Assembly (NCBI GenBank): GCA_030606485.1
Contig: JAUWGH010000001.1
Location: forward strand, 180,001-212,000
Direction: 5' to 3'
Source of the DNA: Promethearchaeota archaeon
GTDB taxonomy: Archaea > Asgardarchaeota > Lokiarchaeia > Sigyniarchaeales > SOKP01
DNA: 32,000 bases
Position numbers and translations under genes: made by a program. Positions 7,770-8,090 of the stretch are shown here, one piece after another; the stretch's first letter is position 1; each line of letters opens with the position of its first letter. The notes under the pieces were generated by a model, which ran no database searches, had not been told where the DNA came from, and saw only the letters and a program-made list of their open reading frames with translations.

Positions 7770-7908
7770 AGACTATTAAAATGAATAAAATTGTATTCAA
7801 ATTATTTCAAATAATATTATCAAACAGATTTTGACAAATTACTTGTGGCATTAGTCCGAACGCCTCTATCCCATCCACTACAGGAGTATTTGGGAATACT
7901 TTCCGTTT
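7770..7908 (-). ncRNA. Putative stand-alone TnpB omegaRNA scaffold
   Basis: Homology to the full element is limited to the last ~140 nt, where TnpB omegaRNAs are encoded. It contains a covarying stem-loop (7782-7799) and a conserved GACUA/UAGUC pairing potential (7852-7856 with 7771-7775). Confidence 0.55.
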
Positions 7909-8090
7909 TAATTTCCCGATATGGGAATTCTTTTCCACAATTGAGGGATACCCTCGGAGCTGATCCGATGCAAAATTAATTCTTTCTTGTAATAAACAAG
8001 CAAAATAAGTATTTAAATTTAACAAGACAACAGATTTTCTATAAAGTGGAAAAACTCTAAAGAATTCAACGATATTATCAAACGATATTA
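7770..8090 (-). mobile_element. Non-autonomous miniature derivative of a TnpB (IS200/IS605/IS607 superfamily) element
   Basis: 7802-7900 aligns without gaps to 16781-16879 (79/99 identical, hand count). AGACTATTAAAA is shared at 7770 and 16749 at the same offset. AAACTCTAAA and ATATTATCAAA occur at 8052-8082 and near 18132-18152. The left boundary is uncertain. Confidence 0.8.

Follow-up and report, generated by a model that had tools for sequence, protein, structure and literature searches.

The omegaRNA of ISDra2-type TnpB is reportedly a pseudoknot-containing scaffold in cryo-EM structures from 2023. ORF-less derivatives of IS200/IS605 elements are known as PATEs, a term taken from Dyall-Smith et al. 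2011 (PMC3119063), and such elements often encode omegaRNAs that are to be used in trans by the TnpB of other elements (Meers et al. 2023, PMC10055086). In the IS607 family, scarless excision combined with TnpB homing has been described for Clostridium IStrons/IS607 (bioRxiv 10.1101/2023.11.20.567912). At the protein level, rearranged TnpB clades (RIIr-5 and related) have a Gly at the position of the canonical RuvC-II Glu, and the next strand provides a replacement Glu (Altae-Tran et al. 2023, PMC10691335). Use of ORF-less omegaRNA elements in trans is thus a published idea (PMC10055086), and the element described here does not define a new category; it is a well-bounded natural example, with filled and empty sites, a target motif, and a covarying scaffold with pseudoknot-like pairing.

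The window (the whole 32-kb stretch of DNA analysed here) contains a tnpB-only element and, 9 kb away from it, a short segment that an initial annotation had described as a stand-alone omegaRNA-like cassette. The match on which that description was based was reproduced: positions 7802–7900 were identical to the tnpB 3′ end at 16781–16879 in 79 of 99 positions, ungapped. The match widened, still without gaps, to 7770–7902 against 16749–16881 (101/133, 76%), and a BLAST search against the whole 3.75-Mb, 13-contig genome (G000) gave E = 2.7e-23 for the segment and the window tnpB element. Since the segment scored 161 bits with a covariance model of its 3′ module, this likeness is not due to chance. 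The segment had been placed at 7770–8090, about 320 bp; the start was correct, but the end was not, as the element (hereafter the mini) runs to 8121 and is 352 bp long. On the minus strand it reads 5′-AGTTACC...TAATAGTCT-3′, and its ends were fixed to within 1 nt by comparing empty and filled sites. We number the mini along the minus strand, counting from the TAT that precedes it (nt 1, window 8124).

The mini consists of a left-end portion of about 150 nt, the first 11 codons of a serine-recombinase tnpA, a conserved hairpin module, and the 3′ end of a tnpB element, of which about 145 nt are kept (~140 nt had been noticed initially); the total scaffold is about 200 nt. The nuclease coding region is indeed absent, leaving only the element ends and an omegaRNA-type 3′ module: the longest stop-to-stop frame within the mini is 95 codons, and no ORF of at least 80 aa with a start codon was listed. 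The possible left-end motifs also proved real, because both the mini and the window full element carry the 11-mer TTTGATAATAT near each end in the same orientation, at a distance of 39 nt on the left and 44 nt on the right. Exact copies of it in the 32-kb window occur only at 7814–7824, 8072–8082, and 18142–18152, all on the minus strand, and a one-mismatch copy is found at 16793–16803. From its placement, TTTGATAATAT is a candidate transposase-binding repeat, and the box TTTAAATA, which precedes the tnpA start remnant by about 40 nt, is a candidate promoter. Neither of the ends, AGTTAC... and ...TAGTCT, is an inverted copy of the other. Since it has neither terminal inverted repeats nor a target-site duplication, the mini is not a MITE in the strict sense; "MITE-like" fits it only loosely, in that it is short, multi-copy, and non-autonomous. 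It is located between a RuBisCO large-chain homologue (6401–7723) and a sulfatase gene (8195–9730, minus strand), with its right end 46 nt from the stop-codon region of the RuBisCO homologue and in convergent orientation to it. Taken as a whole, the mini is very probably a gene-less IS607-type derivative, from a lineage with a serine-recombinase TnpA and TnpB, whose scaffold we propose to be used in trans.

Table 1. Coordinates of the mini, the related elements, and their parts (window positions unless a contig is given)
Feature	Position	Strand	Remarks
Non-autonomous mini element	7770..8121	-	352 bp; sharp ends common to copies
Target/transposon-adjacent motif 5′-TTTAT	8122..8126	-	directly 5′ of left end
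Left end	7975..8121	-	11-mer TTTGATAATAT at 8072-8082; invariant TATA-like box TTTAAATA at 8010-8017
Serine-recombinase tnpA start remnant	7941..7973	-	TTG start and 10-11 codons
Conserved 5′ RNA module	7911..7956	-	hairpin GAGGG/CCCUC, single-stranded CAAUUGUGGAAAA, hairpin H2 UUCCC-AUAUC-GGGAA
OmegaRNA-type scaffold, 3′ module	7770..7914	-	last ~100 nt of tnpB and 36-nt tail
Putative guide AATCTCTTGCTACAAATATT	7750..7769	-	flank directly 3′ of right end
Full tnpB-only element, sister subfamily	16749..18191	-	same end motifs; TATAT target motif
Window tnpB	16786..17994	-	402 aa; Pfam OrfB_IS605 and Cas12f1-like_TNB
OmegaRNA module of window full element	16749..16893	-	
Further full-length minis in G000	C10:426796-427144, C8:237174-237527, C5:49331-49686		80-98% identical to window copy
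C12 full-length element (L064)	G000:C12:194057-195644		tnpB pseudogene and tnpA remnant
Serine-recombinase tnpA remnant of C12 element	C12:194211-194387		last 59 codons; between C12 left end and tnpB
Places in G000 matching the covariance model	four minis, window full element, C12 full-length element, orphan tnpB tail on C2, C10:425622-425763		

The initial annotation had described the cassette as stand-alone and had suggested looking for further copies genome-wide. BLAST detected three minis besides the window copy, four in all, in G000, two of them on C10 and one each on C8 and C5, and about eight in each of the sister genomes G002 and G003 of the same genus; a third sister genome had none. 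The mini thus belongs to a mobile, multi-copy family rather than standing alone as a single cassette; both its ends are intact, and an empty site can be recognized. On the tnpB-sense strand, all four G000 minis start with AGTTA immediately after TAT and stop at TAATAGTCT, with similarity lost at both points; it was lost exactly at these ends in the four G000 and 13 sister-genome copies. The covariance model of the 3′ module recovered eight places in G000, one of which, C10:425622-425763, is a member of another ORF-less family. This second family, of about 400 bp, also includes the G019 loci L006, L021, L051, and L054; it shares the omegaRNA 3′ module but differs in its middle part, where a GUGGUG-AAA-CACCAC hairpin is found, and in G000 its member and the mini at C10:426796 are about 1 kb apart. 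Two minis, at G002:C237 (L027) and G002:C38 (L043), were without 31 nt between two ATTCCCA repeats. This deletion takes out hairpin H2 together with a linker, and the G002 copy at the orthologous RuBisCO site has it. In metagenome runs X2 and X4, from two independent sediment and cold-seep studies, contig depth summed over window 7737–8071 was 5–10 times that of the flanking genes, as is expected for a multi-copy repeat common to related populations. Two metagenome runs labelled RNA-Seq were DNA-like and cover only part of the RuBisCO gene.

Comparison with full-length elements pointed to a parent other than the one next door. Mini nt 1–164 matched the C12 element at its left end (85% identity), and nt 223–355 matched its last 133 nt (90%). 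Since the corresponding value for the window element is 76%, the C12 type is the closest full-length relative. The proposed relation to the TnpB element 9 kb away therefore holds as homology, while the place of closest relative belongs to the C12 element with its tnpB pseudogene; the mini is not a copy of the window's own element (76% versus 90% to C12), in agreement with the earlier suggestion of a sister element family. The C12 tnpB is dead, because a 2-nt deletion shifts its ATG out of frame and a stop codon replaces the Gln of FTNQQ. Since this closer gene is dead, the intact window TnpB is the candidate partner of the mini. A C12-type tnpB in G003:C153 (L050) reads INANVNAG, with Asn in place of the RuvC-III Asp, and judging from this motif was possibly inactivated. 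The elements can be arranged as a decay series, from tnpA plus tnpB through tnpB-only and pseudogene to RNA-only forms, with the omegaRNA module as the last surviving part of an IS607-type element in Asgard archaea.

To describe the scaffold, we aligned the terminal 145 nt, up to the right end, of 36 copies from six genera (alignment A1): 17 ORF-less minis together with full-length, truncated, or other ORF-less elements. The 3′ module has six nested helices and a pseudoknot-like pairing of the loop GGACU (7853–7857) with the terminal AGUCU (7770–7774). This structure was specified by hand because RNAalifold at its defaults yielded a weak consensus (−1.7 kcal/mol) in which the clearest helix was missing. 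In A1, 92% of cells were paired as against 33–49% with slid partners, a control that is inflated because the structure was drawn from the same sequences on which it was scored. Sixteen pairs had changed on both sides, and none of 500 shuffles reached the observed values. In the clearest helix (GGCGUU/AAUGCC in the window copy), both sides had changed at five of the six pairs. A more distant family has GGUU/AACC where GGACU/AGUCU stands, a co-change that supports the pseudoknot-like contact beside the guide, and the single-sequence MFE fold of the mini recovered most helices (z = −1.9). The helices of the scaffold are maintained by compensatory changes, seen in A1 as well as in the ORF-less copies, which bears out the earlier statement that the structure is retained despite sequence divergence. 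Recombination with different full-length parents, rather than selection, could have brought some of the compensatory changes into the minis. A search of window 7000–19000 with all Rfam families at E up to 1 gave no match. One further long-range pairing, UUGUGG of the 5′ module with CCACAA of the 3′ module, was rejected; the two are complementary in the window copy, but other minis have uncompensated variants.

The window TnpB is intact, with the RuvC-I Asp in SIDLG, a Gly at the usual RuvC-II Glu position (IGIGHNNGW), an alternative Glu in GEPYTSK, and an NADVN motif; a Cys4 zinc finger is lacking. In five other genomes, intact homologues keep the RuvC-I Asp, IG(H/Y)N, the Glu of (D/G)E(P/A/S)YTSK, NADVN, and the lack of a zinc finger; these Asgard TnpBs have in common the rearranged active site known from Fanzor-type nucleases. 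Measured against a copy in G002 that is 95% identical and occupies another site, the window tnpB had a dN/dS of 0.19, indicating purifying selection. It is the only intact TnpB of its clade in G000, and its scaffold differs from that of the mini by 24% with all helices kept. The named contigs with the closest TnpB homologues were almost all Promethearchaeota MAGs, which supports the Asgard host assumed at the outset. A contig labelled "Patescibacteria group bacterium" (JANBVM010000002.1, L094) encodes a TnpB 71% identical to the window TnpB, and this contig may be mis-binned. An unrelated third G000 TnpB (C10:~379100-380330) also has Gly at the RuvC-II position (IIVGDL, with IDESYTTQ) and keeps the zinc finger; the ends and 3′ region of this element (C10:379182) are unrelated as well. 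A Ras/Roc-family small GTPase gene (18305–18835, plus strand) adjoins the left end of the window tnpB element. Genes of this family are typical of Asgard genomes.

The same observations can be read differently, with the mini as a mini transposon whose RNA module is inert: a decaying relic, its scaffold still intact through youth, homogenisation, or swapping, and used by no TnpB. We regard this as a real possibility that falls somewhat short of being probable. In its favor stand the pseudogene state of the cognate C12 tnpB, the lack of either transposase type in G000, the shuffling of modules between elements, as in G002:C54, and the 31-nt internal deletion in two sister-genome copies. It is also consistent with the conservation along the mini, which is nearly even (82–93%), with no visible extra constraint on the RNA part. 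However, the 17 ORF-less copies alone, which have diverged to about 74%, kept 97.7% of cells paired and showed double changes at eight pairs. In addition, two independently built ORF-less families keep the 3′ module from an identical 5′ boundary, suggesting that the module is what is being kept, and G000 has an intact TnpB of that clade on which purifying selection acts. These points argue against an inert module.

The 5′ module has a history of its own. Its first part is the tnpA start, and its core was matched with at most two mismatches in 13 of 13 family genera sampled; it is multi-copy in several genomes, with up to 17 matches per genome. Hairpin H2 showed double compensatory changes at five of six pairs among 27 distinct sequences from several ORF-less families. 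The 38 nt at 7903–7940 that hold H2 had no counterpart in any full-length element examined and were not found in G000 beyond the four minis. In other ORF-less families the 5′ module is joined to different 3′ scaffolds, one of which is derived from a G002:C45-type IS607 element. Loci carrying the module in otherwise different ORF-less families were L058-L061, L011, L023, and L067-L076. The ORFs near these other carriers were ordinary, unrelated host genes, none of them TnpB. A far-reaching interpretation, which we consider unlikely, is that in Promethearchaeota gene-less omegaRNA cassettes are dispersed and kept by selection as an expression unit, made up of the tnpA promoter and start, a conserved CAAUUGUGGAAAA/H2 leader, and an exchangeable 3′ scaffold, and are loaded in trans by one Fanzor-like TnpB with a rearranged active site. 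If this were true, cassettes would outnumber nuclease genes, loading would occur even across subfamilies, and a CRISPR-array-free multi-guide arrangement would exist in the archaeal lineage closest to eukaryotes. Of greatest interest is whether a Fanzor-like TnpB of Asgard archaea draws on these cassettes as a repertoire of trans-acting guides kept by selection.

The transposase lineage of the family can be read from its parent-like elements. The 59-aa remnant in the C12 element is 53% identical to the TnpA of the intact tnpA plus tnpB element G002:C45, which matches Pfam Resolvase. In G002:C54 (L062), a mini-type left end continues in frame into the HTH N-terminus of an IS607-type TnpA, identifying mini nt 152–184 (7941–7973) as the TTG start of tnpA and about 11 codons; the same element pairs this left end with the right end of another family. 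Searches for a Y1 transposase (PF01797) gave no match in G000 and the four other genomes of its genus, while positive controls matched. Serine recombinases of IS607 size were not found in G000 (estimated to be 100% complete) or G001 and were present in G002 and G003, and we found no intact autonomous element with exactly the two ends of the mini. Since the genus lacks a detectable Y1 and the parent-like elements carry serine-recombinase remnants, these features assign the family to IS607; the assignment agrees with the lack of inverted or palindromic ends and of a target duplication, as described for IS607. On sequence grounds, the mini family is IS607-type and not IS200/IS605. An IS200/IS605-type PATE, moved as single-stranded DNA by a Y1 (HUH) TnpA through subterminal hairpins, would fit the Pfam OrfB_IS605 match of tnpB, the insertion 3′ of a short motif without duplication (a trait of both families), and a small hairpin (helix 7) 12 nt from the right end. 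Nevertheless, the absence of Y1_Tnp matches from G000 and the four other genomes, together with the serine-recombinase remnants and HTH N-terminus of the parent-like elements, renders this origin very unlikely, and the Y1 TnpA loci of other genera were without mini-family end motifs in the stretches fetched.

The minis have both ends, are inserted at TAT, occur in multiple copies, and show filled/empty polymorphism among sister genomes. All 18 copies compared had TAT just 5′ of the left end, preceded by T or A in 17 of them. The initial annotation had recommended searching relatives for an empty site, and one was found: G001:C46 and G003:C533 have the uninterrupted site, while G002:C38 has a mini between the same two flanks (1 kb compared on each side). 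The mini is inserted 3′ of TATAT, scarless and with no target duplication. In G001:C46 and G003:C533, the RuBisCO 3′ flank runs straight into the left-end-side sequence of the G000 C8 copy. The empty site in G001/G003 consists of TATAT and the 20-nt right-end flank with one mismatch, which is the TAM-plus-guide layout expected for a TnpB-maintained element. The guide proposed earlier on the minus strand corresponds to this flank directly 3′ of the right end, and all 36 aligned copies part company immediately past ...GTCT there. The sole G000 match of the 16-nt guide of the window copy at 0–1 mismatches was its own flank; matches at 2–3 mismatches were AT-rich background. A 2-bp crossover core common to both junctions was not evident, and the base after the right end varies.

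The window mini and G000:C8:237174-237527 (L017), which are 98% identical, have reciprocally exchanged flanks relative to the sister genomes. In the window copy, the right-end flank of the RuBisCO locus is joined to a flank of the sulfatase locus; in the C8 copy, the other sides of the two loci are joined. The sulfatase locus is empty in G001 and G003. Either homologous recombination between the two copies (inversion or translocation) or chimeric assembly accounts for the exchange. Logan metagenome contigs break inside the repeat; the right-end junction was bridged (7447–7798, 0 differences), and the left-end junction (8121/8122) was not.

Given that the right end of the window copy adjoins the RuBisCO stop region, any transcript reading through would lie antisense to the 3′ end of that gene, and the element might have been domesticated as a small-RNA gene that regulates its RuBisCO-like neighbor, for instance by an antisense mechanism or by guiding TnpB. 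Such a role is highly improbable, as other copies adjoin unrelated genes, the guide has no second target in G000, and in G001 the insertion is absent with the RuBisCO gene intact. The chance that the mini is an immobile remnant left by local deletion of a former full tnpB element is negligible: only the two ends of a tnpB-type element are kept, but the same 352–355-bp architecture with identical internal junctions occurs at at least 17 loci in three genomes, and sister genomes have a clean empty site.

For the gene-less IS607-type derivative that we favor, the following mode of action is proposed. Transcription would start in the left end, at the promoter region retained from tnpA, and proceed through the scaffold past the right end, so that the first ~16–20 nt of the flank would serve as the guide. 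A TnpB made elsewhere would bind this RNA and cut the scarless empty site, with its TAT and guide match, left by excision; the mini would then be re-copied into the cut site by homologous recombination and thereby retained. Mobilisation would depend on a serine-recombinase TnpA supplied in trans. Since the cognate tnpB is dead, trans use would fall to the sister-subfamily TnpB 9 kb away, and use of the mini RNA by this window TnpB is plausible. Because G000 has no transposase, the minis here are probably immobile at present, and there would be no excision to counteract now; with the cognate tnpB dead as well, present-day activity is doubtful. The family nonetheless provides material for studying cross-subfamily TnpB loading, the minimal omegaRNA, and the TAM (TAT) of this clade.

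Among the described systems, the mini resembles the Clostridium IS607 elements in lacking terminal inverted repeats and target duplication, in its scarless filled and empty sites, and in having its target motif as the motif 5′ of the left end; in both, the tnpB 3′ end and tail form a predicted structured RNA ending at the right end, and parent-like copies of the mini carry serine-recombinase remnants. Unlike those elements, the mini has neither tnpA nor tnpB and resides in an Asgard host, its target is (W)WTAT instead of TGGG/GG, and a 2-bp crossover core is not evident at its junctions. Like PATEs, it is ORF-less and multi-copy, keeps both ends and an omegaRNA module, and needs proteins from elsewhere, whereas it differs from them in being IS607-type, with no Y1 TnpA found in the genus, and in that it still has the start of tnpA and carries a further conserved hairpin module. 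As in the ISDra2-type omegaRNA, the scaffold overlaps the tnpB 3′ end, the right-end flank is the putative guide, and several stem-loops are combined with a covariation-supported long-range pairing beside the guide, although sequence similarity is not detectable. The 5′ half of the mini scaffold is non-coding, in contrast to that of the full elements, which is coding. Finally, the window TnpB, the presumed partner protein, and its clade, with their IG(H/Y)N, Glu in xE(P/A/S)YTSK, NADVN, and lack of a Cys4 zinc finger, match in motif layout the rearranged RuvC-II clades (PMC10691335).
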